A DNA stretch of 64,000 bases from Terriglobia bacterium (GTDB taxonomy: Bacteria > Acidobacteriota > Terriglobia > 20CM-2-55-15): NCBI GenBank assembly GCA_965198225.1, contig CBDAOY010000007.1, positions 416,001-480,000 of the forward strand, in the 5' to 3' direction. The notes under the pieces are model-generated. The model made no database searches. It saw nothing but the letters and a program-made list of their open reading frames with translations, and was not told where the DNA came from. Of this stretch, positions 1-14,134 are shown piece by piece. The position numbers and the translations under genes were made by a program. Position 1 is the stretch's first letter. Every line of letters starts with the position of its first letter.

Positions 1-2088
1 CTAGTCTCCTCCGCCCGACGACGACTTGCCGGCCTGACCTTCAAGGTACCTGCTCCACCACGCCAGCTCGTTGATCATCCTGTGAACGTTGTTCCAGTGA
101 CCACGGATTCCGTGAGCCTGACCGGCGTACCGGATCATCTTCGCAGGCACTCCCTGTCGCTTCAGCGCGAAATACATCTGCTCGCCTTCCGGATAGGGAA
201 CGCGCTGGTCCACCTCGCCGTGAACGAAGAGCGTCGGCGTTTTCACGTTGCCGGCGTGGGTCAGCGGCGATTGCTTGATCAACCGTTCCAGCGCCTCTTC
301 TTCCCACGGCGTCCCGAAGAATTCGGTCTCCTTCGTGCGGTAGATGTCGGCGGTACCGTAGTCGCTGACCCAGTTCGTGATGCCGGCGCCGGAAATGGCC
401 GCCGCGAAGTGGTCGGGGTACTGCGTGATCACCCAGTTGGTCATGAACCCGCCGTAAGAGTGGCCGGTGTGGCCGACGCGACCGGTGTCGATCGGGTATC
501 GTTCCAGGACGTAATCGACGCCGGACACGACATCCTGCCCGTCCTTGTTGCCCCATTCGCCCCACGTCGCCCACTTGAATGCCTCACCGTATCCGGTCGA
601 GCTCCTGAAATTCGTGTCCAGGACGAAGTAGCCGTTCGCCGCGAAAAACTGCTTCTTGAAGTTGAACCTGTAGCCCACGGCGGAGTGAGGACCCCCGTGA
701 CTGAAGACAATGAGGGGGTAGGGCCCCGTCGCACGGTCGTAGCCGGAAGGGAAGGTCAGCCAGCCCTCGATCGATGTCCCGTCGTAGCTCGGCCATTCCA
801 GCCGTTCCGTCCGGCTGAAGGCGACCTCCTCCAGGATGTTGTCGTGAACGGCGCTGAGCCGGCGTTCGTTCCCTCCGTCCAGGTCCGCAGCATAGATTTC
901 GGGAGGGGACTCATGAAGGCCGACGGTATAGACGATCGTGCGGAAATTCTCGTCGATTGACACCCCGCCGAGACGACGCTCGCCGCGGGTCACCTGCTCC
1001 ACGTCCCCGTCGGGAACTGACACTCGGAACACGTGGGTCTGCCCGCCGATTCCGGCCGTGAAGTACATAAACCGACCTTCCGGCGCCCATCGCGCAGGGC
1101 CCGGTTGGAGATCCCAGTTCGCGGTGAGGTTGATCGGGGCTCCGCCTTCGACGGGCCGAACGAACAGGTCGCGGGGGCCGCCATGATCGAGCTTGTCCCG
1201 GATGACCAGGTCCGTCCCGTAGCTGCGGGCGTATGAAATGAATCGACCGTCGGGGGAGAAGGCAACGCTGTTGTGAACGTAGAGGTCGTCGGTGAGCTGG
1301 GTGACCGTTCCCTCCGTCGACACCGTGTAGAGATCCGCCCGTCCGTAGCTGAGCTCGTTCCGCCAGTCCGAGTCCGCGGTAAAAGCCAGGAGGTCGCCCC
1401 TCGGATGCCAGCTCACGTTGGCGGGACGCAGGTCTTCGCTGAGCAGGACTCTTGCTTCACCGCCCTCAACAGGCTGGATGGCGATTTCGGTGGCCGCGCG
1501 AGCGGTTGGGTCTGGTGAAGGGAATTCCGCTCCATCCCGCTGGAAGTCCTTCCAGTCGAAGATGGCCCCTTCGAACCGCTCCTGGTGGCGGCGCTCGAAA
1601 TCAGTGGCATATGTCGGCTCCAATATCGGCCGCGGCTTGTCTCTGAGGGTTGCGAACCACTTTCCGTCCGGGCTCAGGACCGATCGTTCGTGCGGTCCGG
1701 CTGTTCTGGCGGGCAGAGCCGTGGGATCTGCCGGATCCAGAGTCCACCACCCGCCGTCGGCCGCGTACCGGAGCAGGTTGTCAGCGATCCATCGGGCTCC
1801 TGAAATGTCCTTTCCGTAGTGGACGACTCGTCGCGGCTGTGCCGACGCATCGGCGGGCACGATGCGTGTCTCGACCCGGGTGCTATTGTCCTCCTCGATT
1901 CTAGTGGACACCGTAAAAGCCACCCAATCACCGTCTGGTGAGATCTGAGGGTTCCCGACCGACTGGATTCGATAGAAGTCCTCGATGGCCAGCGGCCTGC
2001 TCTGGGCGGCTGCGAAGCCAACTGCGAGGGTCGAAACAAGAATCAGCGCGAGAAAAACGTGAAGCTGGAAAGACCTTGAGCGTGCCAT
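1..2088 (-). CDS. Exported S9-family peptidase (PD40/TolB-like propeller plus alpha/beta hydrolase)
   Basis: GHSYGG nucleophile motif, HGGP, HGEVDQRV, signal peptide; ATG at 2088 preceded by GGAGG. Confidence 0.9.
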   Translation of the reverse strand: MARSRSFQLHVFLALILVSTLAVGFAAAQSRPLAIEDFYRIQSVGNPQISPDGDWVAFTVSTRIEEDNSTRVETRIVPADASAQPRRVVHYGKDISGARWIADNLLRYAADGGWWTLDPADPTALPARTAGPHERSVLSPDGKWFATLRDKPRPILEPTYATDFERRHQERFEGAIFDWKDFQRDGAEFPSPDPTARAATEIAIQPVEGGEARVLLSEDLRPANVSWHPRGDLLAFTADSDWRNELSYGRADLYTVSTEGTVTQLTDDLYVHNSVAFSPDGRFISYARSYGTDLVIRDKLDHGGPRDLFVRPVEGGAPINLTANWDLQPGPARWAPEGRFMYFTAGIGGQTHVFRVSVPDGDVEQVTRGERRLGGVSIDENFRTIVYTVGLHESPPEIYAADLDGGNERRLSAVHDNILEEVAFSRTERLEWPSYDGTSIEGWLTFPSGYDRATGPYPLIVFSHGGPHSAVGYRFNFKKQFFAANGYFVLDTNFRSSTGYGEAFKWATWGEWGNKDGQDVVSGVDYVLERYPIDTGRVGHTGHSYGGFMTNWVITQYPDHFAAAISGAGITNWVSDYGTADIYRTKETEFFGTPWEEEALERLIKQSPLTHAGNVKTPTLFVHGEVDQRVPYPEGEQMYFALKRQGVPAKMIRYAGQAHGIRGHWNNVHRMINELAWWSRYLEGQAGKSSSGGGD

Positions 2089-2140
2089 CAGGACCTCCAC
2101 TTACGAAAAGTTTTGTCGAACCCTACTCATGATGCCCTGT

Positions 2141-3019
2141 TCACGGGCACGGATCTTCGCCTTCGACCGGGGCGACGCCGGAGGGCAGGAAGCGACACGG
2201 GTCGGCCGACTCGAGCGAGACGCGCGTTCCGGTTCGGATGAGGCTCGTGGCGCTCGGACCCTGGAAGAAGCTGTATCCCTCGCGGGTTCCCATCCATGCC
2301 AGCGGACCGCCCAGTTTACGGCCGGCCCCGAGGGTTTCGTCCTTGATCTTCGTCACGAGCGCCTCGTAGTCCGGGTCGCCCTGCCGTCGTCCGGTAAAAC
2401 TGCCGAGGTCGGAGCTTGCCGCGAAGACGACATCGACACCGGGGACGCCGGCGATCTCTTCGGCGATCTCCACACCGGCCGGCGATTCGATCATGGCAAC
2501 GATCATGATGTTGTCGTTCGCCGCCCTGCGGTAGTCGTTGCCCCAGATCGCACGGTATTGCCCACCGCCCTGGCTCCTTTTGCCGATGGGCGGGTATTTG
2601 GCGAAGGTGACTGCATTCTGCACTTTCTCGACGCTGTCGACCATCGGGATGATGATTCCGAGGGCTCCGATGTCGGTAGCCTTCTGGATGTCTCCTTCTG
2701 TTGCGTCGGGTACCCGGATGAATGGGATCGCCGGGGTGTCCTTGCAGGCCCAGATCATGCGTGCTGCATCGGTGTAGGTCAATGGGCTGTGTTGCATTTC
2801 GATCCAGAGGAAATCGAACCCGGCGCCAGCCATCGCGCAATAGATATCCGGGTCGGCCGTGGAGACCGTTCCCCCGACAACCTGTTTGCCCTCGGCCAGT
2901 TTCTGCTTCACCGTATTGAACATTCGCACCTGACCGGTCTGTTGCCCCTGAGCTTCGAACGCGGCGGTGGCGGTCAAGCCGACAGCCCACAGTAGCGCGA
3001 ACAATGTTACGTGCTTCAT
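2141..3019 (-). CDS. HpcH/HpaI aldolase family protein with signal peptide
   Basis: GFDFLWIEMQHSP, MIESPAGV and DVVFAASSDL motifs. Confidence 0.85.
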   Translation of the reverse strand: MKHVTLFALLWAVGLTATAAFEAQGQQTGQVRMFNTVKQKLAEGKQVVGGTVSTADPDIYCAMAGAGFDFLWIEMQHSPLTYTDAARMIWACKDTPAIPFIRVPDATEGDIQKATDIGALGIIIPMVDSVEKVQNAVTFAKYPPIGKRSQGGGQYRAIWGNDYRRAANDNIMIVAMIESPAGVEIAEEIAGVPGVDVVFAASSDLGSFTGRRQGDPDYEALVTKIKDETLGAGRKLGGPLAWMGTREGYSFFQGPSATSLIRTGTRVSLESADPCRFLPSGVAPVEGEDPCP

Positions 3020-3134
3020 CGGTACAACCTCTCTGTTGGAAGGATAATTGCGTCGAGAATCGTACCATTGTGGGGCGTTGGGCGGAAGGAACTGCGTGCG
3101 TCGATACGCTCTGCGAGCGCACAGACCGGGAGGC

Positions 3135-3167
3135 GTGTAGGTGCGGTCTCATAGAGCGCACCTACAC
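3135..3167. repeat. REP-like GTAG palindrome (fused, internally deleted copy)
   Basis: GTGTAGGTGCGGTCTCATAGAGCGCACCTACAC. Confidence 0.75.
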
Positions 3168-3241
3168 CCGATCCCAATCGCTTTGTGTCGGCCACTACAA
3201 TTGGGGTGCGGGAACAAACGATCTGGCGGGAGGTAGACTGA

Positions 3242-3577
3242 ATGTGGATCATGGTCGCGGGACCTTACAAATCGGGAGCCCGGAGTCGGGAAGAAGCAGA
3301 CGCCAATCTGAGGACGCTGAACGATGCCGCCTACGCGCTGTTTTTGAAAGGACACGTTCCGGTCATAGGCGTCAACATGGCCCTGCCGGTCATCGAGGCG
3401 GCCGGCATGGATCGCTACGAGGAGATCATGATGCCGATTTCGCTGTCGCTGGCCGAACGTTGTGACGCGATTCTGAGAGTCGGTGGCCACTCGCGCGGCG
3501 CTGATGAAGAAGTCGCCGTGTTGGCGGGGAAAGGTCGGCCGGTTTTCCGGCGAGTGGAAGAAGTCCCTCAGGCATGA
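3242..3577 (+). CDS. DUF4406-like / nucleoside deoxyribosyltransferase-fold small protein
   Basis: IMVAGPY start and CDAILRVGGHSRGADEE motif. Confidence 0.7.
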   Translation: MWIMVAGPYKSGARSREEADANLRTLNDAAYALFLKGHVPVIGVNMALPVIEAAGMDRYEEIMMPISLSLAERCDAILRVGGHSRGADEEVAVLAGKGRPVFRRVEEVPQA

Positions 3578-3616
3578 CAACTGACTACCGACTGAGCCCG
3601 GAACTGACTACTGACT

Positions 3617-4268
3617 ACTGACTACTTCCCCCCATCGCTTACTCTATTCTCATATGGCCGCGGATCACTTCAGTTCAGAGATCAAATCCGGAGCGCTCCT
3701 CATACTTCTTGCCCTGGCTCTTCCAACGGACCTGCCTGGTGCCAACACGCAGACCGTGGGGCCCGCAGCGTCGCCAGGGCCGGGGGTCCCGGAATGTCCG
3801 CGGCTTTCTCTTTTCATGGCTCAGGACGACTGGCTCGAACGGCTTGTCAATCCGATCTACACCACCACCGAAGAGGTGGATCAGGCGGTCCGGGAACGCG
3901 GGCGCATGCTGGAGTGTCTCGATTCGGTCGGACCGGGAGGTCCTAAATCTGTCGGACACTACTGACTACCGACAACTGACAACTGACTACTGACGAACTG
4001 ACTACTTCCCCCCATCGCTTACTCTATTCTCATATGGCCGCGGATCACTTCAGTTCAGAGATCAAATCCGGAGCGCTCCTCATACTTCTTGCCCTGGCTC
4101 TTCCAACGGACCTGCCTGGTGCCAACACGCAGACCGTGGGGCCCGCAGCGTCGCCAGGGCCGGGGGTCCCGGAATGTCCGCGGCTTTCTCTTTTCATGGC
4201 TCAGGACGACTGGCTCGAACGGCTTGTCAATCCGATCTACACCACCACCGAAGAGGTGGATCAGGCGG
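3617..4268 (+). repeat. 272-bp direct repeat (3617-3888 = 3997-4268)
   Basis: Identical sequence at a 380-bp offset; both copies begin in ACTGACT heptamer tracts. Confidence 0.95.
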
Positions 4269-5394
4269 CCGGGCGTTTTTGTCCGATCAGCTACGCATGG
4301 TGCGCTACCATCTGGCCCTGTTCCTGTCGTTCGCCGACGCCGGAACGGGTTCTCCAGAGCTTGTCGATCTCTCCACGACCCCGGACCCGGCGGTGCGACG
4401 ACTGAGGGAAGACCTTGGCCTGCTTCCGCCCTCGGGTGTCATTCTGATTCGATACTTCATCGATCCCGAGCAAGTGCCCGACCCCATTCGCGACGCTTTC
4501 GAAAACCCACAGACTCAGGCGGTCACGCTGTGGTGCCGCTACGTTGCCGTTTTGACGTCCACCCGGAGAGACCTCAGCCAAACCCCGACCGCAACCGATG
4601 GCCTGCAATCGACCTTCTCCCACGAACTCGTGCATGCGTTCCTCAACGCCAGACTCGGCTCCGGGATCATCGAGAGCGGATTCCCATCGTGGTTTCACGA
4701 GGGCATGGCCATTCATTTCAGTGGCAGCGGGCGTGGACACGTGACGCTGGACCCCTCCACGGGTGGCTTCACACGAACCGAGCCGACCGCGCAATACGAG
4801 CGATACCAGAGGACCTTTCTCTACCTGGAATCGAGCCTGGGCCATTCCGGTTTCAATCAGGCTTTGCATCTCGCAGTTGAAAACGCCGATCCCTCGTTGT
4901 TGATAGCCGCCGCTGACGAATCTTCATACGACGAGCTTGTCGCGACGGCCGAGCTGTGGTGGCGGTGGTGGCCCCTTCCAGTCGCGCTGGTTCGAGGGTG
5001 GGCACTCTGGTGGCTGGCGGGGTTGATCGTGATGTCGATCGGAGCGGGATGGTCGTTGTGGAGGCGATGGCAGCCCGCTGTTCCCCGATCGGCCCTCGAA
5101 GTCGAACTGAACTCGGATCTGCTGGCTGCGATCCAGAGCGGGGATGCGGGAACCGTTCGATACCTTATCCGCTCCGGAGCGCATGCCAACGCGCAGGATG
5201 GTGACGGGAGGTCTGCCCTCATGTGGGCGGTTTGGATGGACCAGTTTCAGGCGGTGGAGGCTCTGGTCAATGCCGGGGCGAAGGCCACGCGTGAGATCCG
5301 GGGCGTCGCGGAGTTGCGGGGCTGTTCTCCGGACATCGTCCGTGTGCTTGCCGATGGGGTCGCCAGGGACGGGGAGGAGTGGAGCGATGATTGA
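4034..5394 (+). pseudogene. Signal-peptide gluzincin-like metallopeptidase (peptidase MA-like) with TM segment and C-terminal ankyrin repeats, frameshifted near 4268
   Basis: HELVH...PSWFHEGMA zinc motif, GAHANAQDGDGRSALMWA ankyrin; the N-terminus is in another frame and duplicated upstream. Confidence 0.7.
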
Positions 5395-5471
5395 CCCCGC
5401 CGGTCCCTTCCAGTTACATTTGCGCGCAAGATGACGTTCCATCAAGGTCGCGGCAAGATCGAGTGCCCACG

Positions 5472-6785
5472 ATGACCACCACCGAACCCACCGTCACGAC
5501 CCGGGCATCTGCAGGCGACCCGTCTCTGATCTCGACCGGCAGCTGGGTTATCTACGACCTTGCCAATACGATTTTCTCTTTCAACATCGTGTCGTTCTAT
5601 TTCGTGCTGTGGGTGACGAACGTTATGGGGGGAACGGATGCCGACTACGGCTACGCAAACTCCATCTCGATGGCCGTTGTTTTCTTCCTGTCCCCTGTGC
5701 TGGGCGCCCTGACCGATCAGGCTCCGAAACGAATGCCTTTCCTCGTCATCTCCACCGTGATCTGCGTGGCCCTGACGTTTCTACTCGGTTCCGGTGGATT
5801 GACGTTTTCGCTCGTGTTTTTCGCCTGCGCCAACGTCGCCTACCTGGCCGGCCTCCAGTTCTACGACGCTCTGTTGCCCGAGGTCAGCACCGAGGCGACT
5901 CGGGGCCGGGTCAGCGGTGTGGGCGTCGGCGTGGGCTACCTGGGTTCGTTCATCGGGCTCGCAGTCGGAGCGATGATTCTGGGCCTGGAAATCGACTCTC
6001 TGCCGGTGGCGGAGCAGGCGGTTCGCTACCGCACGGTTTTCCTTCTGACGGGATTCCTGTTTCTGACGTTTGCGATCCCCTGCTTTTTGTTCGTACAGGA
6101 GCGAGGACGTCCGGGGCGCCGGTTCTCCAGCTCTTCGGTGGGCGCGGCATTCCACCAGGTTGCGACGACGTTCCGACACTCCCGGCGGTATCCCGGCCTG
6201 CTGCGCTTCCTTATCGGCCGGATGTTCTACACCGACGCCGTCAACACCGTCATCATCTTCATGGGCGTGTACGTCGTCAACGAGGTAGGTTTCGGGACAG
6301 TGATGGCTCAGGTGGTGCTCCTGGTTGCTATCCTCTTCGCCGTCGTCGGTGGTCTCGTTTGGGGACGAATCGTCGATCGAATCGGCCCGAAACGCTCGCT
6401 GACGATCGTGCTGCGACTGTGGATGGTCGTGTTCAGCTGGACCGCCCTGGTCGGGTTCCTGCCCGTGCCGAGCTGGACGTTCTGGCCCGTGCCGGTCCTG
6501 GCGGGTATCGCGCTGGGCGGGACCTGGACGGCCGATCGTCCCTATATGCTGCGTCTGACGCCACCCGCGCGAGTCGGCGAGTTTTACGGCCTCTACGGGA
6601 TGGTCGGCCGTTTTGCGGCGATTCTCGGACCCGCTCTCTGGGGCCTGATCGTCAACACACTGGGTTTGGGGCGACCGGTCGCGGTGACGACATTGTTGGT
6701 CGCCATCCTGATCAGCTACTTCATCCTCCGTCCCGTTTCCGACGAACGTAGAGACTGGCCCGCGGAAGAACGAATCCCGGCCTGA
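5472..6785 (+). CDS. MFS transporter (UMF1/ATG22-like)
   Basis: SWVIYDLANT, YDALLPEVS, GEFYGLY; about 12 hydrophobic segments. Confidence 0.85.
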   Translation: MTTTEPTVTTRASAGDPSLISTGSWVIYDLANTIFSFNIVSFYFVLWVTNVMGGTDADYGYANSISMAVVFFLSPVLGALTDQAPKRMPFLVISTVICVALTFLLGSGGLTFSLVFFACANVAYLAGLQFYDALLPEVSTEATRGRVSGVGVGVGYLGSFIGLAVGAMILGLEIDSLPVAEQAVRYRTVFLLTGFLFLTFAIPCFLFVQERGRPGRRFSSSSVGAAFHQVATTFRHSRRYPGLLRFLIGRMFYTDAVNTVIIFMGVYVVNEVGFGTVMAQVVLLVAILFAVVGGLVWGRIVDRIGPKRSLTIVLRLWMVVFSWTALVGFLPVPSWTFWPVPVLAGIALGGTWTADRPYMLRLTPPARVGEFYGLYGMVGRFAAILGPALWGLIVNTLGLGRPVAVTTLLVAILISYFILRPVSDERRDWPAEERIPA

Positions 6786-6854
6786 GTTTCCGTCCTTTTG
6801 CCCGAATTTCATGGGACGGTCCGGGGCGAGCCTGCTATCGTCGAATCGATGTTG

Positions 6855-7177
6855 TATCGAGTCAGGCTGCCCGAGCCTTCTATTACCTCGGCTCCGCGCT
6901 ATACAAGCTCGACCATTTGGAATACGCCGAAACGAGCCTCGAGTGGTCGCTCGGCCATGACGAAGTGATCCCGGACGCGCGACTGATGCTGGTCAACATC
7001 TACATGAAGCAGCGCCGGTACCGCGAAGCCGCCGATCAACTGACAGTCTACCTGGTAGAGTTTCCGGACAGTCCTCAACGGAAGGGTGTCGAAAAGATGC
7101 TGGACGACATCCGCAAGGTCCTGCAGCAGTCGCCCGGACAATCGCAGTCCTGTGTCTTCTGCAGTCGGGAAGAATAA
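6855..7177 (+). pseudogene. C-terminal TPR-protein fragment
   Basis: AFYYLGSALYKL...ARLMLVNIYMKQRRYREA TPR pattern; no convincing start. Confidence 0.55.
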
Positions 7178-7191
7178 TCCGTCGGAAGGGC

Positions 7192-7685
7192 AAAAAAAAT
7201 GGAAAGGGGCCAACTGTCCGCTTGCTCTCGCCACTAGTTGCTCGAGCACGGGACTGATTCTCCGGCGAGCCCTCGATCGCAGGGCTGATCATGATTCGAT
7301 CGTGAGTTGCCCCACTTTCTCTTCGCGGTCCGATCAACTCCCTTCAGGCTTTGCGAGTTGCCCCGCGCCGCCGTCCGGAGGCTGATTCAAGCTCCGTTCG
7401 GTCCACGAGTTGCCCCGCTTCCCTCCCTTTGCTTGACCTTCAAACTCTGACTGAGACGCGAGTTGCCCCGCTCCTCGTCCAGGGTTTGAGTCAGACTCTG
7501 CTCGGTCTGCGAGTTGCCCCGCATTCCGCTCAGGGTCTGATTCAGACTCTTCTCGATTTGCGAGTTGCCCCGCTCCTCGTTCAGGATCTGAGTCGGTCTC
7601 TGGTCGGCCTGCGAGTTGCCCCGCATTCCGTTCAGAAACCGTGCCGGGTCGTCAATCTCTAACGATCAGCTAACCCCTTACCGAG
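7192..7685 (-). ncRNA. Candidate structured ncRNA, copy 1, with 7 tandem ~51-nt GNRA-hairpin modules
   Basis: GCGGG-GCAA-CTCGC hairpins (plus-strand starts 7302, 7353, 7405, 7458, 7509, 7560, 7611); 5'/3' closing helix 7667-7679 with 7204-7216; U8 tract at 7192-7199; paralog at 11.1-11.4 kb. Confidence 0.7.
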
Positions 7686-7735
7686 CAGTAGAATCTACCT
7701 TTCTCGGAATCCTGTCAATATAGAAAATTTTGCGC
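7685..7735 (-). promoter_or_regulatory. Sigma70-like promoter for ncRNA copy 1 with overlapping GTAGA-N-TCTAC palindrome
   Basis: TTGACA (7713-7718), N15, TAGATT (7692-7697), AT-rich upstream tract; conserved in copy 2. Spacing is shorter than the canonical 17. Confidence 0.55.
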
Positions 7736-7934
7736 GCCATTGCTCATGTATAGTACTGAATACAAGTAGTTTAACGTGTATGCGAATATCTTGCGTCGAT
7801 CACAGAACGGCGCGGTGGGAAATGTTGCAATTTTCGCTATTTGAGGTGCGCGAAGTGCGCCCTGCGCTCGGTTATGGTCAGACCTCCTCGCCTAACGCCT
7901 CACCTGTCTTTTGGGCTGCCTGTTCGGGGTTCCA

Positions 7935-8050
7935 CGAACTATGCAGGCGTCCCAAAGGGTCGCGATGGCGGGACACAAGACCCGGTCCGTTTTGACGGGT
8001 ACAACATCGTCAACGAGGACGACATTCCGGAGGCCGGACAAGCCGTCGCA
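7935..8050 (+). pseudogene. Tyrosine recombinase (phage integrase) C-terminal remnant
   Basis: Frameshifted AGVP-RVAMAGHKTRSV-FDGYNIVNEDDI, resembling the integrase GH...Y box II. Confidence 0.75.
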
Positions 8051-8142
8051 GCCTCCTTCACCGATCCATGGGCACAGTTCCCGCACAGATCGCAGAAATC
8101 CATGAGGAAAGGAAAATAGCCGAGATGCAAAGTATTTGAGAC

Positions 8143-8198
8143 TGGATGCCGAAAGGGGGTTTCGAACCCCAAGTCCCTGGCGGACAATAGATCCTGAA
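8143..8198 (-). pseudogene. Degenerate 3' fragment of tRNA-Leu(CAG), att-site-like
   Basis: Minus strand reads TTCAGGATCT...GGGGTTCGAAACCCCCTTTCGGCATCCA; no D-arm or 5' half. Confidence 0.6.
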
Positions 8199-8355
8199 GG
8201 CGTCCTGTGAAAGGGTTGGTTTGTTGATGAAAGCTTAGTCTTTCAACTCATCCACGGATTCTTAGCCAATGGAAAACGTGAAAAGTTGTGTCAAGTTAAT
8301 TGTGGAGCGGGCAAGAAGCCGGCGGCCCGCGAAGTAACCACCGGCCTCGTTAACC

Positions 8356-10851
8356 TTAGGGTCGGGCCGGGCAGTCATCGGTTGGGAAATACTGCAGGCA
8401 TTCCTGGGCTGTTAAGTCGCGAAATATGCGCGCGCGCGCGCGTTCGAGCAAACTCTCGATTTCGCGTGCCCATATCTTGGCCGTCCCATCCTGGCTCGCG
8501 GTGGCGACTCGCGTCCCGTCCCCGCTGAACGCCACCCCATACACATCGCCGCCGTGGCCGCTCAGGGTCCGCAACTCCTGCCCCGTTGCCGCATCCCATA
8601 TCTTGGCCGTCCCATCGACGCTCGCGGTGGCGACTCGCGTTCCGCCCCCGCTGAACGCCACGCCATACACATCGGTGCCGTGGCCGCTCAGGGTAAGCAA
8701 CTCTTTCCCGGTTGCCGCATCCCATATCTTGGCCGTCCCATCGGCGCTCGCGGTGCTCACCCGCGTCCCGTCCCCGTTGAACGCAACCCCAATCAAAATG
8801 GTGTCGTGGCCGCTCAGGGTAAGCAAGTCCTCCCCGGTTGCTGTATCCCATATCTTGGCAGTCCCATCCTCGCTCGTGGTGGCCACTCGTGTCCCATTCC
8901 CGCTAAACGCCACCGCATACAGATAGGGCTCGTGGCCGCTCAGGGTAAGCAAGTCCTCCCCGGTTGTCGCATCCCATATCTTGGCCGTCCCATCCTGGCT
9001 CGCGGTGGCGACTCGCGTCCCGTCCCCGCTGAACGCCACGCCATACACACCGGCGTCGTGGCCTCTCAGGGTAAGCAACTCTTCCCCGGTTGTCGCATCC
9101 CATATCTTGGCCGTCCCATCCTGGCTCGCGGTGGCGACTCGCGTCCCGTCCCCGCTGAACGCCACGCCATACACACCGGCGTCGTGGCCTCTCAGGGTCC
9201 GCGACTCCTCCCCGGTCGTCGCATCCCATATCTTGGCCGTCCCATCGGCGCCCGCCGTGCCCACCCGCGCCCCGTCCCCGCTGAACGCCACGCCATACAC
9301 ACCGGCGTCGTGGCCGCTCAGGGTCCGCAATTCCTCCCCGGTTGCCGCATCCCAAATCTTGACCGTGCCATCGGCGCTCGTCGTGCCCACCCGCGTCCCG
9401 TCCCCGTTGAACGCCACGCCATACACATCGCCGCCGTGCCCGCTCAGGGTAAGCAACTCCTGCCCGGTTGCCGCATCCCATGTCTTAGCCGTCCCATCGA
9501 CGCTCCCGGTGGTCAGTCGCGTCCCGTCCCCGCTGAACGCCACCCCATACAAAGAGTCTTCGTGGCCGCTCAGGGTCCGCAACTCTTCCCCGGTTGCCGC
9601 ATCCCATATCTTGGCCGTCCGATCGACGCTCGCGGTGGCGACTCGCGTCCCGTCCCCGCTGAACGCCACCCCATACAGATAGTCTTCGTGGCCGCTCAGG
9701 GTAAGCAACTCCTGCCCGGTTGCCGCATCCCAAATCTTGGCCGTCCCATCGACACTCGCGGTGGCGACTCGCGTTCCGCCCCCGCTGAACGCCACGCCAT
9801 ACACATCGGCGTCGTGGCCGCTCAGGGTCCGCAACTCCTGCCCGGTTGCCGCATCCCAAATCTTGGCCGTCCCATCGGCGCTCGCGGTGGCGACTCGCGT
9901 CCCGTCCCCGCTGAACGCCACCCCATACACATCGGCGTCGTGGCCGCTCAGGGTCCGTTCGACAAAAGATGTCGCGACGGCCCGGTAGAGCACGCCTTCT
10001 GCGACCGGAAGTGTATCCCCGCCGAAATTGTGAGTGGCCTGTACCGCATGCACTCCCAAAATGACGCTAAGTTCCGGATCTTGGGACAGGCTGCCTTCCG
10101 CGTAGGCGGCTAGTTCCCGCGCCCGGCCTTCTCGTCCGTTTTCTTCAGCGATGAAGGTCTGTTGAACGGCGTAGGACACGGCAAGAACGGCGAGAACGAG
10201 TGCCGCCATCGCCACTGATAAATAGGCCTTGAGTCGCGAGCGCATCCTCCTCTCTTTTTGCAAATCTTGTTCTAAGTCTTGCCTGGAGGTAACATTCTCG
10301 CTCTCGCGGATTCCACCGATGATGCGCTCGCGAATGTTAGTCCGGATGTCGTCGCGCTCCTGCGAAGACAGGAGTTCCCACTTCCCGGGCTGAACAGGCA
10401 GGCGCTGCGCGTTTGGCCAGCGTGCTTGCACAACGTCGGGTGTCCATCGGGCGCCCTCTCCCGTTGAATCGATAAGAATTGGTGCGACGTGACGGTTGGC
10501 CAACCACCAGTCCAGTTCCTTGTGGACCCAATCGTCCACGCCTCGATTCGGGAAAGCGCCCGGCGAGCACACAAGAAGCATCGCCCGCGCCCGCTGTAGC
10601 GCCGGCTCGTGAACGCGAGTCCAGTCGTCGACAGCGGGAGCCGATTGATCGTAGTAGAGCTCAAGCTCGGGCGGCGCGTCGTATCCATCGGGGATAAAGG
10701 GGAGGGGTTGCCTGTGAAGAGTCTCGTAAAGCCACTCTGCGGCTCCACCTCCGTCGACTTGGCGATAGCAGATGAAGATGTCCCAGGTTGCAGGGGGGCG
10801 TGCGGGTTCACTCCCTTCAGCGCTGGGGTTATTAGTGTGGTCTGCCGACAT
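8356..10851 (-). CDS. TIR domain + TM helix + 12 near-identical WD40 repeats
   Basis: DIFICYR...WVHKEL TIR motifs; hydrophobic VAMAALVLAVLAVSYAV; 42-aa TLSGH...AKIWD repeats. Confidence 0.9.
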   Translation of the reverse strand: MSADHTNNPSAEGSEPARPPATWDIFICYRQVDGGGAAEWLYETLHRQPLPFIPDGYDAPPELELYYDQSAPAVDDWTRVHEPALQRARAMLLVCSPGAFPNRGVDDWVHKELDWWLANRHVAPILIDSTGEGARWTPDVVQARWPNAQRLPVQPGKWELLSSQERDDIRTNIRERIIGGIRESENVTSRQDLEQDLQKERRMRSRLKAYLSVAMAALVLAVLAVSYAVQQTFIAEENGREGRARELAAYAEGSLSQDPELSVILGVHAVQATHNFGGDTLPVAEGVLYRAVATSFVERTLSGHDADVYGVAFSGDGTRVATASADGTAKIWDAATGQELRTLSGHDADVYGVAFSGGGTRVATASVDGTAKIWDAATGQELLTLSGHEDYLYGVAFSGDGTRVATASVDRTAKIWDAATGEELRTLSGHEDSLYGVAFSGDGTRLTTGSVDGTAKTWDAATGQELLTLSGHGGDVYGVAFNGDGTRVGTTSADGTVKIWDAATGEELRTLSGHDAGVYGVAFSGDGARVGTAGADGTAKIWDATTGEESRTLRGHDAGVYGVAFSGDGTRVATASQDGTAKIWDATTGEELLTLRGHDAGVYGVAFSGDGTRVATASQDGTAKIWDATTGEDLLTLSGHEPYLYAVAFSGNGTRVATTSEDGTAKIWDTATGEDLLTLSGHDTILIGVAFNGDGTRVSTASADGTAKIWDAATGKELLTLSGHGTDVYGVAFSGGGTRVATASVDGTAKIWDAATGQELRTLSGHGGDVYGVAFSGDGTRVATASQDGTAKIWAREIESLLERARARIFRDLTAQECLQYFPTDDCPARP
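8470..9958 (-). repeat. 126-bp tandem coding repeats (WD40)
   Basis: Twelve highly similar 126-bp units. Confidence 0.95.
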
Positions 10852-10917
10852 CGATAAGTGTCAGCTTGGGAAACGAACCCCTAACTGTCAATCAATTACT
10901 AGGAGTCAAATCGAGTG

Positions 10918-10979
10918 TGGTTGCTCTAGAGGGACTTCGAATCTCCACAGGATCGCTCCCGACTAGATCCTTAATCTGG
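10918..10979 (-). pseudogene. Degenerate tRNA-Leu-like 3' fragment
   Basis: Minus strand reads CCAGATTAAGGATCTAG, long variable arm, GGAGATTCGAAGTCC...ACCA; 5' half missing. Confidence 0.5.
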
Positions 10980-11077
10980 TTGTTCCATCAAGGTGGAAGC
11001 GCGTTCCGTGGCGGCTGGCCAAGGTTGAAGGCGGGTGAGGGAAGAACGGCCAAGCCTGAGTACCGGGAGCTGAGGGC

Positions 11078-11373
11078 AAAAAAAAAGGAGGGGTCAGCCG
11101 TCGCCGCTCTCGCCACTAGTATGCGTGAGCCCGGAATCGACTCTCCGGCCAGGCCCCCGATCGTCAGAGCCTGTGTCAGACCCTCATCGGTTTTGCGAGT
11201 TGCCCCGCATCCCCTCTTCGGGCCTGCTTCAAACTCCGTCCGGCTTGCGAGTCGCCCCATAAGCCGTCCAGGGCTTGAATCGGCTCCTGATCGCTCTGCG
11301 AGTTACCCCGCAAATCCGTTCAGAAGCCATGCCGGGTCATCAATCTGGTTGCGATCAGCTAACCCCAACCGCG
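11078..11373 (-). ncRNA. Candidate structured ncRNA, copy 2, with 3 GNRA-hairpin modules
   Basis: Hairpins at 11195, 11247, 11298 with loops GCAA, GCGA, GUAA; closing helix 11356-11366 with 11090-11100; U9 tract at 11078-11086. Confidence 0.7.
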
Positions 11374-11423
11374 CAGTAGAATCTACCTTTCTCGGTAGGG
11401 TGTCAATACAGAAAAATTTGCGC
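11373..11423 (-). promoter_or_regulatory. Sigma70-like promoter for ncRNA copy 2
   Basis: TTGACA (11401-11406), N15, TAGATT (11380-11385); 23-nt block identical to copy 1. Confidence 0.55.
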
Positions 11424-11633
11424 TGTTAATATTGATAAAAGTACTGATACTAAATGTGTTAACAGGTGCATGCATTCGCTGCGTCCGGGCTCGTGTCCAC
11501 GACCGTAACAAATTGCAATTTGCCGTTCGAATGCTTCCAAACCGCGTTTTCGGAGGGCCCGAACGCGGGTGTTTCCTGAGATAATGATGGCCAGATGGCG
11601 CAGTTGTTCGGAAACGCTGCGGAGGAGGTCCCT

Positions 11634-12678
11634 GTGCGTATAGGCATTCCAACCGAGATAAAACCGAAAGAAGGTCGAGTTGCGTTGATTCCACCCGCTG
11701 CGGCCGAGCTTGTGCAAGACGGGCATGAAGTGTTGTTGCAGTCGGACGCCGGGGTTGGGACCGGCTACTCTGATCAGGACTACATCGATGTGGGGGTGCG
11801 CATCGTAGCGGACGCGCAGGAAGTTTACGGTGAGGCCCAGATGGTCCTGAAGGTGAAAGAGCCGATCGAGCCGGAGTTCGAACTCCTGAGAGAAGATCAC
11901 CTGTTGTTCTGCTTCCTCCACCTGGCTGCTCTTCCCGAATTGACGCGCGTCCTTCAGAACAAGGGTTTGACGGCGGTGGCCTGGGAGACCGTCGAGGAGC
12001 GGGGGAGACTGCCGATCCTGGCGCCCATGAGTGAGATTGCCGGCCGTCTCGCTGCTTCATCGCCACCACGGAGGACGCGGGCTGATGCTGGGAGGCCTTC
12101 CCTCGTCGGATCGCGGTCACGTGGTGGTGCTGGGAGCGGGCAGCGTCGGCATCAACTCCGCCGAAGTCGCGGCCGCTCTGGGAGCTCGAGTGACGGTGCT
12201 TGCGCGAAGCCGGGAAAGCCACGCCCGCGCAAACGCTCTGGGCCCGAACGTCACCGGCTTGCCTGCTTATAGAGACATGGTTGCGGAGGCTGTCGCGGAT
12301 GCAGACCTGCTGGTGGGTGCGGTGCTGATCCCGGGAGCCCGGGCGCCGAAATCAGTGGATGCCGCGATGGTGCGCAGCATGAAGCCCGGCAGCGTGATCG
12401 TCGACGTGTCCGTCGACCAGGGCGGTTGTGTGGAAACCATTCGCCCGACCACGTATGAAGACCCGACCTACGTCGTCGATGAAGTGGTTCATTTTGGAGT
12501 CACCAACATGCCGGGAGCCGTTCCGCGCACCAGTTCCCAAGCGCTCTCGAGCGCGCTCGTTCCCTACACGTTACGGCTGGCTGGGGAGGGAGGCCTGTCC
12601 GATCCAGCACTGCGTGCAGGGATCAACGTTCAAGCCGGAACAATCGTCCATCCGGCAGTCGCCGAAGCCATGGTTTGA
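11634..12678 (+). pseudogene. ald: Alanine dehydrogenase, frameshifted near 12045-12055
   Basis: RIGIPTEIKPKEGRVAL N-terminus and GAVLIPGARAPK / DQGGCVET / NMPGAVPRTS C-terminus are in different frames. Confidence 0.9.
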
Positions 12679-12694
12679 AGGAGGAGTCTTTTTG

Positions 12695-14050
12695 ATGTCG
12701 AATGCTGCCAAAGCTGAAGTCGAAAAGTTCATGACGGGGTTGATTCGACGAAATCCCGGAGAGACGGAGTTTCATCAGGCTGTTCGAGAGGTTGCCGAAA
12801 GCATGGCGCCCTTCATGATGGAACATCCCGAATACACACGAGCCCGGATCGCCGAGAGGATGACCGAGCCCGACCGCATCATCATGTTTCGTGTGACCTG
12901 GCAGGACGATGCCGGGAGCGTTCGGGCAAACCGGGCCTGGCGGGTTCAGTTCAACAACGCAATCGGTCCATACAAGGGAGGAATGCGATTCCATCCGACG
13001 GTGACACAGAGCGTGCTGAAGTTTCTGGGGTTCGAGCAGGTATTCAAGAACAGTCTCACGGGGCTTCCGATGGGGGCGGCGAAGGGTGGCTCGAACTTCA
13101 ACCCGAAAGGGAAGAGCGAAAGCGAGGTGATGCGGTTCTGCCAGTCGCTGATGACCGAACTGCACCGATACATCGGTGAGGACATTGATGTGCCGGCCGG
13201 TGACATCGGCGTGGGAGCCCGCGAGATCAGCTTCCTGTTTGGACAGTACAAGCGGCTCGAGAACCGGTTTGCAGGGATCCTGACGGGAAAGGGACTTGCT
13301 TTTGGCGGAAGTGCGATTCGTCGCGAATCGACCGGCTACGGGTGCGTCTACTTTATGCAGAACATGCTCGAGACACGAGGGAGTGGCCTCGAAGGGAAGA
13401 CCTGTACTGTTTCCGGATCGGGGAATGTCGCCCTCTATGCGCTCGAGAAACTCATTCACTTCGAGGCCAGGCCGGTTACCGCATCGGATTCGGAGGGATT
13501 CATCCATGACCCCGACGGGATCGACGAAGAGAAACTGGAATGGTTGAAAGATCTGAAGGAAGCGCGCAGGGGGCGTATCCGGGAATACGCCGAGCATTTC
13601 GACGGCTCGACATTCTATGAGGGCCAACGCCCCTGGGGCGTCAAGGTCGACCTGGCTTTCCCCTGCGCGACACAGAACGAACTGGAAATCCAAGACGCCA
13701 AGGAACTCCTTGGAAACGGCATGATCGGCGTCGCTGAAGGAGCCAACATGCCGTGTACTCCTGAAGCCATCCACGCCTTCCTGCGGGCACGGACGCTGGT
13801 CGGACCCGGAAAGGCAGCCAATGCCGGCGGCGTTGCCGTCTCCGGCCTGGAACAAAGCCAGAACGCCCTGCGTATCTCGTGGTCCCGCGAGGAAGTCGAC
13901 ACCCGCCTTCAACAGATCATGCGGGACATCCACGCCAGATGCGTGCGCTACGGTTACGAGAAAGACGGCTACATCAACTACGTCAACGGTGCGAACATTG
14001 CCGGTTTCGTGAAGGTCGCCGATGCCATGTTGGCCTATGGCGTCGTGTAG
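12695..14050 (+). CDS. gdhA: Glutamate dehydrogenase (GdhA type)
   Basis: GPYKGGMRFHP, DVPAGDIGVG, KAANAGGVAVSGLE; GGAGG RBS. Confidence 0.95.
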   Translation: MSNAAKAEVEKFMTGLIRRNPGETEFHQAVREVAESMAPFMMEHPEYTRARIAERMTEPDRIIMFRVTWQDDAGSVRANRAWRVQFNNAIGPYKGGMRFHPTVTQSVLKFLGFEQVFKNSLTGLPMGAAKGGSNFNPKGKSESEVMRFCQSLMTELHRYIGEDIDVPAGDIGVGAREISFLFGQYKRLENRFAGILTGKGLAFGGSAIRRESTGYGCVYFMQNMLETRGSGLEGKTCTVSGSGNVALYALEKLIHFEARPVTASDSEGFIHDPDGIDEEKLEWLKDLKEARRGRIREYAEHFDGSTFYEGQRPWGVKVDLAFPCATQNELEIQDAKELLGNGMIGVAEGANMPCTPEAIHAFLRARTLVGPGKAANAGGVAVSGLEQSQNALRISWSREEVDTRLQQIMRDIHARCVRYGYEKDGYINYVNGANIAGFVKVADAMLAYGVV

Positions 14051-14134
14051 GTGCGGTCATACAAGCTGTGAACGAATGCCATCTGTTTGAGAATCGGGTG
14101 GCGGGGCTTTTCATGAAGAACCTGCGATCCTCAA

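Follow-up and report, generated by a model that had tools for sequence, protein, structure and literature searches.

A three-module hairpin-array RNA gene in a Terriglobia bacterium, with a seven-module paralogue, as a putative compact form within a wider RNA family

Abundant structured RNAs of unknown function are rare in bacteria, and several of those described have later proved to represent new biology. CsrB, RsmY and RsmZ are small RNAs which serve as protein sponges by means of repeated hairpin sites with GGA-bearing loops. Certain large bacterial RNAs, ROOL and GOLLD among them, reportedly assemble into multimeric cages. At the level of DNA, elements of the BOX, REP and MITE kinds consist of end pieces placed around a variable number of internal hairpin-forming units. 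Arrays of non-coding RNA associated with UG27 reverse transcriptases are built from units of ~135-167 nt and lie beside reverse-transcriptase genes in phages (10.64898/2026.09.22.753630). Acido-1 (RF01686) is presented as a candidate non-coding RNA found in Acidobacteria only and having no consistent gene association (PMC2864571). The subject of this article is a stretch of 64,000 nucleotides from a Terriglobia bacterium (contig CBDAOY010000007.1, positions 416,001 to 480,000), referred to throughout as the window, and within it the minus strand of 11078-11410, which holds the gene for a non-coding RNA of ~290 nt with three modules of ~51 nt. This gene is termed copy 2; copy 1, its paralogue at 7192-7718, has seven modules.

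Both loci are abundantly transcribed, free-standing RNA genes. A search of public runs identified four sponge metatranscriptome runs, all from one study, which contain 13-17% of the sampled words of 7000-11600. Six more runs from three studies contain 82-91% of the words of this interval; their kind is unrecorded, and the source sample may be among them. In the four RNA-library runs, copy 1 is covered from 7206 to 7674 by contigs with a word depth of ~1,200 to 12,000, many of them only 57-163 nt long. Copy 2 is covered in the same runs at a depth of 67-325, each run contributing one contig of 264-279 nt which begins at 11086, 11088, 11090 or 11097 and ends at 11360, 11363 or 11364. Most of the contig pieces match the window at 99% identity or more. 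They stop at the U-runs on one side and, on the other, ~10 nt short of the start which the -10-like element predicts. The sole other piece listed in 7000-11600 lies at 10510-10693 with a depth of 2.9, the gap elsewhere not being usable as a sign of silence, and the RNA library may contain DNA. Contigs of three runs continue past 7670-7674, and those of one run extend before 7206, into sequence unlike the window, which may come from other strains or from chimeras. Near 7282-7289 the RNA-library runs also show 7-nt insertions, of three different kinds.

The two genes have in common a promoter-like block, the 5' and 3' strands of a closing helix and a terminal U-run. Local alignment limits their similarity to 7187-7735 and 11073-11423, with dissimilar flanks, and conservation of the promoter block extends ~50 nt upstream. 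Three identical segments stand out, namely the islands GCTCTCGCCACTAGT (7224-7238 and 11106-11120) and GATCAGCTAACCCC (7664-7677 and 11354-11367), and a 23-nt block at 7685-7707 and 11373-11395. With up to one mismatch allowed, GCTCTCGCCACTAGT has no match in the genome beyond these two sites. The spacer between TTGACA and TAGATT measures 15 nt, and reaches 17 nt only if GATTCT is taken as the -10 element; a consensus promoter scanner in which spacers of 16-18 nt are required did not call the block. In both copies the U-run comes straight after the 3' strand of the closing helix, and no local terminator hairpin was called; at copy 2 the sole stem before the run is the closing helix. Small insertions and deletions of 1-2 nt between the copies disrupt every reading frame, and the open reading frames (ORFs) which overlap the two RNAs match no Pfam family.

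On the plus strand the apical hairpins of copy 2 read GCGAGTTGCCCCGC (11195-11208), GCGAGTCGCCCCAT (11247-11260) and GCGAGTTACCCCGC (11298-11311), and the corresponding minus-strand loops are GCAA (11200-11203), GCGA (11252-11255) and GUAA (11303-11306). The hairpin positions, loops, strand and layout given in a preliminary description of this DNA are thus all correct in the sequence, as is the presence of the identical islands and the 23-nt block at both loci. Its proposal of a paralogous pair with three against seven modules is likewise borne out by the hairpin scan, which counts three in copy 2 and seven in copy 1, and by alignment. Successive apical elements are spaced by 51, 51, 51, 53, 52 and 51 nt in copy 1 and by 51 and 52 nt in copy 2. 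Identity among the modules ranges from 55 to 84%, module 2.1 being 80% identical to module 1.1. A recent 102-bp dimer duplication within copy 1 had also been put forward. The similarity of alternate units (80% for 1.1 and 1.3, 82% for 1.2 and 1.4) leans weakly towards it, but the highest value of all, 84%, belongs to the adjacent pair 1.2 and 1.3.

Folding supports the conclusion that the two RNAs are structured. Their minimum free energy (MFE) folds are more stable than those of dinucleotide shuffles, with z scores of -7.43 (0 of 200 shuffles as good) and -6.80 (0 of 100). In both MFE and centroid folds the closing helix encloses a multiloop, from which the three modules of copy 2, or the seven of copy 1, radiate. 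From its base upwards, a module begins with outer arms that vary and continues with a short middle helix and then a purine-purine internal loop, situated 6 pairs below the tip; a GGG/CUC apical stem with a GNRA loop forms its end. All 10 window modules present an apical element of the form (C/U)GGG-GNRA-CUC(G/A). The middle pair of all 10 apical stems is G-U, where the opposite strand would have a C-A mismatch, which makes the structure a property of the minus-strand RNA alone. Over both strands, the genome contains 550 GG-GNRA-C hairpins whose stem has at least 4 pairs (0.043 per kb per strand), and 10 of these fall in the two RNA genes. Nowhere else in the genome do three or more of them occur within 200 nt on one strand.

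Sequence differences between and within the copies also bear on the fold. In the closing helix the two copies have the same 5' strand, and the 3' strand differs but pairs, with 4 pairs kept after a one-sided change and 1 broken. A strain variant, represented by one contig in run X2, shows 17 differences from the window, 16 of which were listed and placed on the fold of copy 1. These include two double compensatory changes (pair 7379-7340, U-G in the window, and pair 7372-7347, G-C in the window, are both A-U in the variant), 4 pairs kept via a one-sided change, 2 pairs broken and 6 changes at unpaired positions; one of these last changes the loop of module 1.4 from GCAA to GCGA. In an alignment-free arm-swap test, which sets the 5' arm of each module against its own 3' arm and against the 3' arms of other modules, 9 of the 10 window modules pair better with their own arms, the mean energies being -14.9 versus -9.65 kcal/mol. 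When the fold of copy 2 is projected on copy 1, the 99 pairs with letters in both copies divide into 53 which are identical, 18 kept with a one-sided change, 4 kept with a two-sided change and 24 which are broken, many of the last where the alignment sets non-homologous modules together, beyond module 3. Selection on structure over coding, as first suggested from the loop substitutions, is therefore upheld by the frame-breaking indels, by the pairing of own arms and by the double changes and the GCAA to GCGA substitution of the strain variant.

The modules are members of a large hairpin-array RNA family which occurs in Acidobacteriaceae and many metagenome contigs. Pattern scans located long arrays of the same type in two contigs of Acidobacteriaceae metagenome-assembled genomes (L056 and L113) and in G031 and G157, two genomes which belong to a single genus. 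When metagenome contigs were searched for three apical cores in succession, at least 119 stretches came back, and 110 of the 119 listed were classed as arrays by script. The spacing of the listed metagenome arrays has its mode at 49 nt (264 cases), followed by 50 nt (142), and 3-15 modules were detected per listed contig. Among the matches listed, 860 loops were scored, all of which had been chosen as GNRA by the scoring criterion; they represent 8 GNRA types, GCAA (440), GCGA (177), GAAA (128), GUAA (46), GUGA (31), GAGA (23), GGAA (10) and GGGA (5). At module positions where that criterion failed and which were located by periodicity alone, 100 of 129 are GNRA in the MFE fold. The random loop decay which had been named as a sign against the structural interpretation is thus not what relatives display. 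No description of GNRA-hairpin arrays was found in Rfam 15 or in the literature searched.

Soil modules have a consensus apical element CGGG-GNRA-CYCG, with C at -4 in 92%, G at -3 in 90% and G at +8 in 97%. The apical 12 nt are conserved in sequence, the arm positions carry only 0.1-0.6 bits, and a tandem G-A/A-G lies six pairs below the loop. In 110 soil modules aligned with MAFFT, the three-helix structure beats 500 of 500 shuffles in percentage paired, in cells with two-sided changes and in covariation score, and it beats every slid control as well. The outer helices are poorly registered by this alignment (helix 1 is paired in 47% of cells, helix 2 in 59.5%), and the case for arm complementarity consequently rests on the arm-swap test. 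Here the soil modules favour their own arms in 346 of 404 cases, with a Wilcoxon p of 3e-49 which is overstated since the modules are related. The soil RNAs end in separate terminator hairpins of their own, and a long-range closing helix was seen in one MFE fold.

The relationship of the window RNAs to these arrays was assessed with a covariance model, R1, made from the 110 soil modules only, the window being excluded, and run on both strands of the 64-kb window with filters off. Its top eight hits are all window modules, at 31.0, 21.1, 21.0, 19.8, 19.2, 17.8, 16.7 and 14.7 bits. A ninth window module ranks 13th, so that 9 of 10 are listed at E<=1.8, among them 7 of the 7 in copy 1; module 2.2 is not listed at E<=10. 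The best hit, at 11176-11225, aligns over the full model, outer helix and purine motifs included. On four genome-derived loci outside its training set, R1 detects ~8 to 13 modules each at E<=0.05 and 17-50 bits, where the hairpin scan counts up to 17, and the window modules score at the low end of this soil range of 17-50 bits. The window modules share with the family the apical element, a period of ~47-53 nt, recognition by R1, complementarity of own arms and the purine-purine loop.

The end domains differ. The window RNAs have a closing helix and a U-run, the soil RNAs a separate terminator hairpin, and the 5' signature strings of the window RNAs were found in 0 of the 119 listed metagenome loci. 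Because their end domains are unlike those of the soil RNAs, the window RNAs are filed as a distinct, compact subtype of the array family. The window genes, which have a clean closing helix and only 3 and 7 modules, are the smallest known members. Module number had been predicted to be expandable, and values of 3, 7 and, in related arrays, ~8 to 17 agree with this. The suggestion of a multi-copy RNA family needs one qualification, in that the source genome itself has exactly two copies. Coordinates of the parts of both genes are collected in Table 1.

Table 1. Parts of the two hairpin-array RNA genes in the window, with the basis for each assignment
Feature	Position	Strand	Basis
-35-like hexamer TTGACA, copy 2	11401-11406	minus	direct reading; same in copy 1 at 7713-7718
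23-nt block, identical in both copies, containing -10-like TAGATT (11380-11385)	11373-11395	minus	sequence reading and comparison of the copies
Closing helix of copy 2, 5' strand, GGGGUUAGCUGAUCG	11352-11366	minus	MFE and centroid folds
Module 2.1; apical hairpin 11298-11311, loop GUAA 11303-11306	11279-11330	minus	fold and hairpin scan; R1 19.8 bits, E 0.013
Module 2.2; apical hairpin 11247-11260, loop GCGA 11252-11255, apical stem down to 4 pairs	11228-11279	minus	fold and hairpin scan
Module 2.3; apical hairpin 11195-11208, loop GCAA 11200-11203	11176-11227	minus	fold and hairpin scan; R1 31.0 bits, E 1.6e-5
3' domain of copy 2, including the 15-nt island common to both copies (11106-11120)	11104-11175	minus	sequence, comparison of the copies, fold
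Closing helix of copy 2, 3' strand	11090-11103	minus	fold
U9 run at 3' end of copy 2; probable termination site	11078-11086	minus	sequence; RNA-library contig ends fall there
Copy 1, ~490-nt paralogue with 7 modules; -35 7713-7718, -10 7692-7697, modules 7283-7643, U8 run 7192-7199	7192-7718	minus	sequence, fold, hairpin scan
Closing helix of copy 1	7663-7677 with 7206-7216	minus	MFE and centroid folds

In the 6.4-Mb source genome (G000), both BLAST and a motif search turn up these two copies and no others, and BLAST of copy 2 against 39 relatives gave no match outside G000. A pattern of two apical cores, applied to 33 other genomes of its family (f1), yielded one match, in G010, which was read as unrelated. 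R1 was run over 150 genomes of the class with stricter filters and 39 candidates scored per genome; in this sample, and at limited sensitivity, arrays were found only in G000, G031 and G157. Single R1 hits in G474 and G445 proved to be lone hairpins and not arrays. The three-core pattern, likewise of limited sensitivity, matched in 36 of a sample of 401 phylum genomes, and arrays were accepted, from the matched strings, only in the same three. The two-core scan of contigs returned at least 117 stretches, which were screened by script and ten of which were read; only L056 and L113 are arrays, the other stretches read being protein-coding repeats with an 18-nt period, CRISPR-like repeats or other repeats. 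Viral contigs gave two pattern matches, neither of them an array by R1.

The 18-nt-period repeats are the main false positives, as they match GGGGNRAYTC. They encode runs of I/V-W-G-N/D-S at the C-terminus of acidobacterial proteins (L081, L086, G180:C1:246717-247013 and others), in L081 and L086 after a region which reads as peptidase-like. Two further observations were made beside true arrays. A TPP riboswitch preceding a TonB-dependent receptor gene lies just upstream of, and divergent from, the soil-type arrays of L113 (3639-3734) and L056 (5193-5288). On L197, a 1.7-kb metagenome contig, a tmRNA gene (783-1119) lies ~90 nt downstream of a 12-module array; this arrangement is not seen at the four genome loci, and L197 may be a chimeric assembly of abundant RNAs.

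In the source genome the two RNA genes sit in a species-specific variable region, 2100-11600, together with an MFS gene and with genes for repeat proteins of eukaryote-like kinds, namely an ankyrin gene (4174-5394), a TPR remnant (6917-7177) and a TIR-WD40 gene. The flanks are common to genomes of the same genus, 8-2000 at 76% nucleotide identity in G002 only and 11635-14054 at 70-77% in all three, and the interval between them is occupied by different genes in the same-genus genomes. In G002 (L162), the alanine dehydrogenase gene is preceded by ORFs which read as regulator- and permease-like, and the RNA gene is missing. The TIR-WD40 gene (8356-10851, minus strand) encodes a protein of 831 aa which has a TIR_2 domain at the N-terminus and whose ~12 WD40 repeats are very regular and visible as DNA repeats too; the gene shares the strand of copy 2 and begins 226 nt downstream of it. 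The TPR remnant converges on copy 1. At ~8140-8190 (minus strand) a short segment resembles a tRNA in its T-arm and 3' end, although ARAGORN and Rfam call nothing there, and it may be the remnant of an integration site. On the other side of copy 2, alanine dehydrogenase (11595-12678) is split into overlapping ORFs, 11595-12272 and 12031-12678, where G002 has a single ORF of 376 aa; a frameshift, a pseudogene or an assembly error is possible. The glutamate dehydrogenase ORF which follows (12428-14050) is 540 aa long, its relatives match residues 91-540 only, and its GTG start is probably set too far upstream.

What these RNAs might do can be approached from the pattern of conservation. In the interpretation developed here, all the apical hairpins would bind one and the same trans-acting factor, each of them offering a single site; the factor would most likely be a protein, and the RNA would act as a multivalent titrator or scaffold, with a titration capacity set by the number of modules and by very high abundance. 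Binding sites are suggested because the sequence of the apical 12 nt is conserved whereas the arms vary freely and keep only their pairing, because the loop keeps to the GNRA class and not to one sequence, and because valency varies from 3 to ~17. That the apical hairpins are sites of one factor on a multivalent titrator or scaffold is plausible, with a likelihood which falls just short of even. The whole reading, in which each locus is an independent modular RNA gene, a member of the family and a multivalent platform for a trans-acting factor, is thought somewhat likelier to be right than wrong. If it holds, Acidobacteria would possess a global titration system with a protein partner.

A number of observations count against this interpretation. 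The RNA was not found in the 3 same-genus genomes or the 33 other family genomes searched, and is dispensable in close relatives. Its neighbours are ordinary, both in the window (ankyrin, MFS and TIR-WD40 genes) and at the soil loci (a TonB-dependent receptor with its TPP riboswitch, isochorismatase and MFS genes). The link to the soil family is made by a model of 52 positions with modest scores, which leaves 1 of the 10 modules undetected, and 24 of the 99 projected pairs are broken between the copies. Expression comes from one study, and assembled contigs cannot show strand, exact ends or level. Conservation of the apical sequence would fit RNA-RNA contacts or stability equally well. Finally, no partner has been found; CsrA shows no co-occurrence with the arrays, ProQ and TROVE are absent from the five genomes tested, and Hfq is uninformative.

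The strongest alternative is that the RNA is self-assembling or architectural, its GNRA caps docking into helices or purine-rich internal loops, either of adjacent modules or of separate molecules, to form a compact bundle, an oligomer or a condensate in which no protein is titrated. Several features accord with this, including the retention of the loops as a class (8 types among the 860 listed, and 100 of 129 at periodicity-found positions), the tandem purine-purine loop at a fixed 6 pairs below every cap, the very short linkers between rods, the placing of the modules in a closed multiloop and the very high abundance. The multimeric cages reported for ROOL and GOLLD point the same way. On the other hand, halves of the classical 11-nt receptor are not enriched, since 77 kb of arrays contain 8 of one and 13 of the other and the window RNAs 0/0 and 0/1, and loop docking alone does not obviously need an apical stem which is conserved in sequence. 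The architectural explanation is judged rather unlikely; were it true, it would point to a new RNA-based cellular structure. A more elaborate version, to which a similarly low probability is attached, treats the window RNAs as the compact sponge-symbiont form of a new comb-RNA class of Acidobacteriota. Such RNAs would consist of 3 to ~17 rigid, GNRA-capped rods of ~20 bp, whose caps and purine loops assemble an RNA or RNA-protein body with a size set by module number, and they would be no ordinary regulatory small RNAs.

It is quite improbable that the transcripts are precursors which are cut into hairpin units of ~50 nt acting singly, in the style of a CRISPR precursor, a small-RNA cluster or a type III antitoxin. 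The units are indeed regular (49-53 nt) and variable in number, and many of the RNA-library contigs of copy 1 are short (57-163 nt). However, short contigs are to be expected from the assembly of repeats and hence give no sign of cutting, and copy 2 is recovered in single contigs of 264-279 nt in 4 of 4 runs. The units have moreover diverged to 55-84% identity, the arms of each unit pair together and leave no free spacers, and no nuclease or toxin gene follows either copy. Two named systems of this kind were considered and set aside. For a type III toxin-antitoxin array the units are 55-84% identical, and what lies downstream is the opposite-strand TPR remnant and the TIR-WD40 gene; for a CRISPR array, the sequence between the apical hairpins consists of paired module arms and the apical element is only 12-14 nt.

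A cis-acting role of copy 2 as leader of the TIR-WD40 gene is very improbable. The gene is on the same strand and a short gap of 226 nt separates the RNA from the start codon at 10851, but copy 1 has the same promoter block and U-run with no gene downstream on its strand, and the similarity of the copies stops at the U-run. The contigs of copy 2 stop at 11086-11097, and the piece which lies within the gene has a depth of 2.9 versus 77.8 for copy 2 in the same run. The soil arrays, for their part, have terminator hairpins of their own and unrelated neighbours.

Slighter still is the chance that the loci are a mobile or selfish repeat of the MITE, REP or BOX type, or an array of protein-binding sites at the DNA level. 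End pieces around variable internal units do resemble modular repeat elements, and the locus lies in a region which differs between species. Against this, there are two copies in 6.4 Mb, a promoter-like block, a U-run and cover by RNA-library contigs, the G-U pairs make the structure strand-specific and the compensatory changes fit RNA structure. Terminal inverted repeats, which the preliminary description had named as a mark of a MITE, do not flank the unit. MITE, REP and BOX elements were accordingly discarded as candidates, the two copies having neither such repeats at their unit ends nor a shared flank.

Least probable of all is a CsrB/RsmZ-type sponge for CsrA, for although the genome has two CsrA genes and the RNA is multivalent, abundant and provided with GGA triplets in its purine-rich arms, its loops are GNRA and lack GGA, CsrA is found in 0 of 3 g19 genomes yet in G002 and G003, which are without the RNA, and Rfam gives no CsrB or Rsm hit at E<=1.

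Other partners and roles were considered in the same way. CsrA itself was rejected as a partner: the array-bearing genus g19 lacks it in 3 of 3 genomes, all of them 100% complete, and G002 and G003, of the same genus as the source genome, have CsrA but not the RNA. The two CsrA paralogues of the source genome lie at G000:C9:546155-546310 and C2:30887-31012, and one of them follows an ORF of 142 aa which has the size of FliW. ProQ and TROVE (Ro) were excluded, as they are absent from 5 of 5 genomes tested, and Hfq is present in 5 of 5 and hence uninformative. Replacement of 6S RNA (RF00013) was dismissed, 6S being present elsewhere in 5 of 5 genomes tested. A K-turn was considered by eye and dropped, since the arms pair in Watson-Crick fashion, as was an enrichment of Shine-Dalgarno-like GGAG, the count of which comes close to what base composition gives by hand estimate. 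A search of the genome for targets which could pair with the 15-nt island, with up to one mismatch allowed, found none beyond the two copies. A search for a protein partner through co-occurring neighbours, which the preliminary description had recommended, came to nothing: clustering of neighbour genes at 42 loci with flanks revealed local synteny only and no recurring RNA-related gene.

The family is common in Acidobacteriaceae and metagenome contigs, with at least 110 array contigs, and is absent from Rfam 15 and from the literature searched. A scan of Rfam 15 with cmscan gave no hit at E<=1 on 6500-12500 of the window and none at the gathering score on the whole of it. On 16 array loci Rfam 15 recognised only the TPP riboswitch and the tmRNA beside the arrays. 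The 3- and 7-module genes are convenient minimal constructs for structure work and for the pull-down of a partner.

Parallels can be drawn between these RNAs and several known systems. Like CsrB, RsmY and RsmZ, they are free-standing, abundant small RNAs with a variable number of hairpin sites, whose valency differs between paralogues and species. Unlike them, they carry GNRA loops on a conserved G-rich stem and are composed of three-helix rods of ~50 nt, with no co-occurrence with CsrA and no Rfam hit. GOLLD, ROOL, OLE and IMES resemble them in being large, structured, metagenome-found and abundant in RNA libraries, with functions which are unknown or architectural; by contrast, the present RNAs have no match in Rfam 15 at E<=1 and consist almost entirely of one repeated module in varying number. 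BOX, REP and MITE elements are set apart by the two copies found here, which have no terminal inverted repeats, a promoter-like block and U-run of their own and abundant RNA-library contigs. With Acido-1 they share the status of an acidobacterial candidate non-coding RNA without a consistent gene association (PMC2864571), whereas RF01686, which the Rfam library includes, matched neither the window region nor the 16 array loci at E<=1. The nearest published analogue seen is provided by the UG27 arrays, which similarly combine conserved structure with diverse sequence and gain or lose single units (10.64898/2026.09.22.753630). The units described here are by contrast 49-53 nt long, 0 of 11 Pfam-scanned window ORFs match a reverse-transcriptase family and no arrays occur in the viral contigs.

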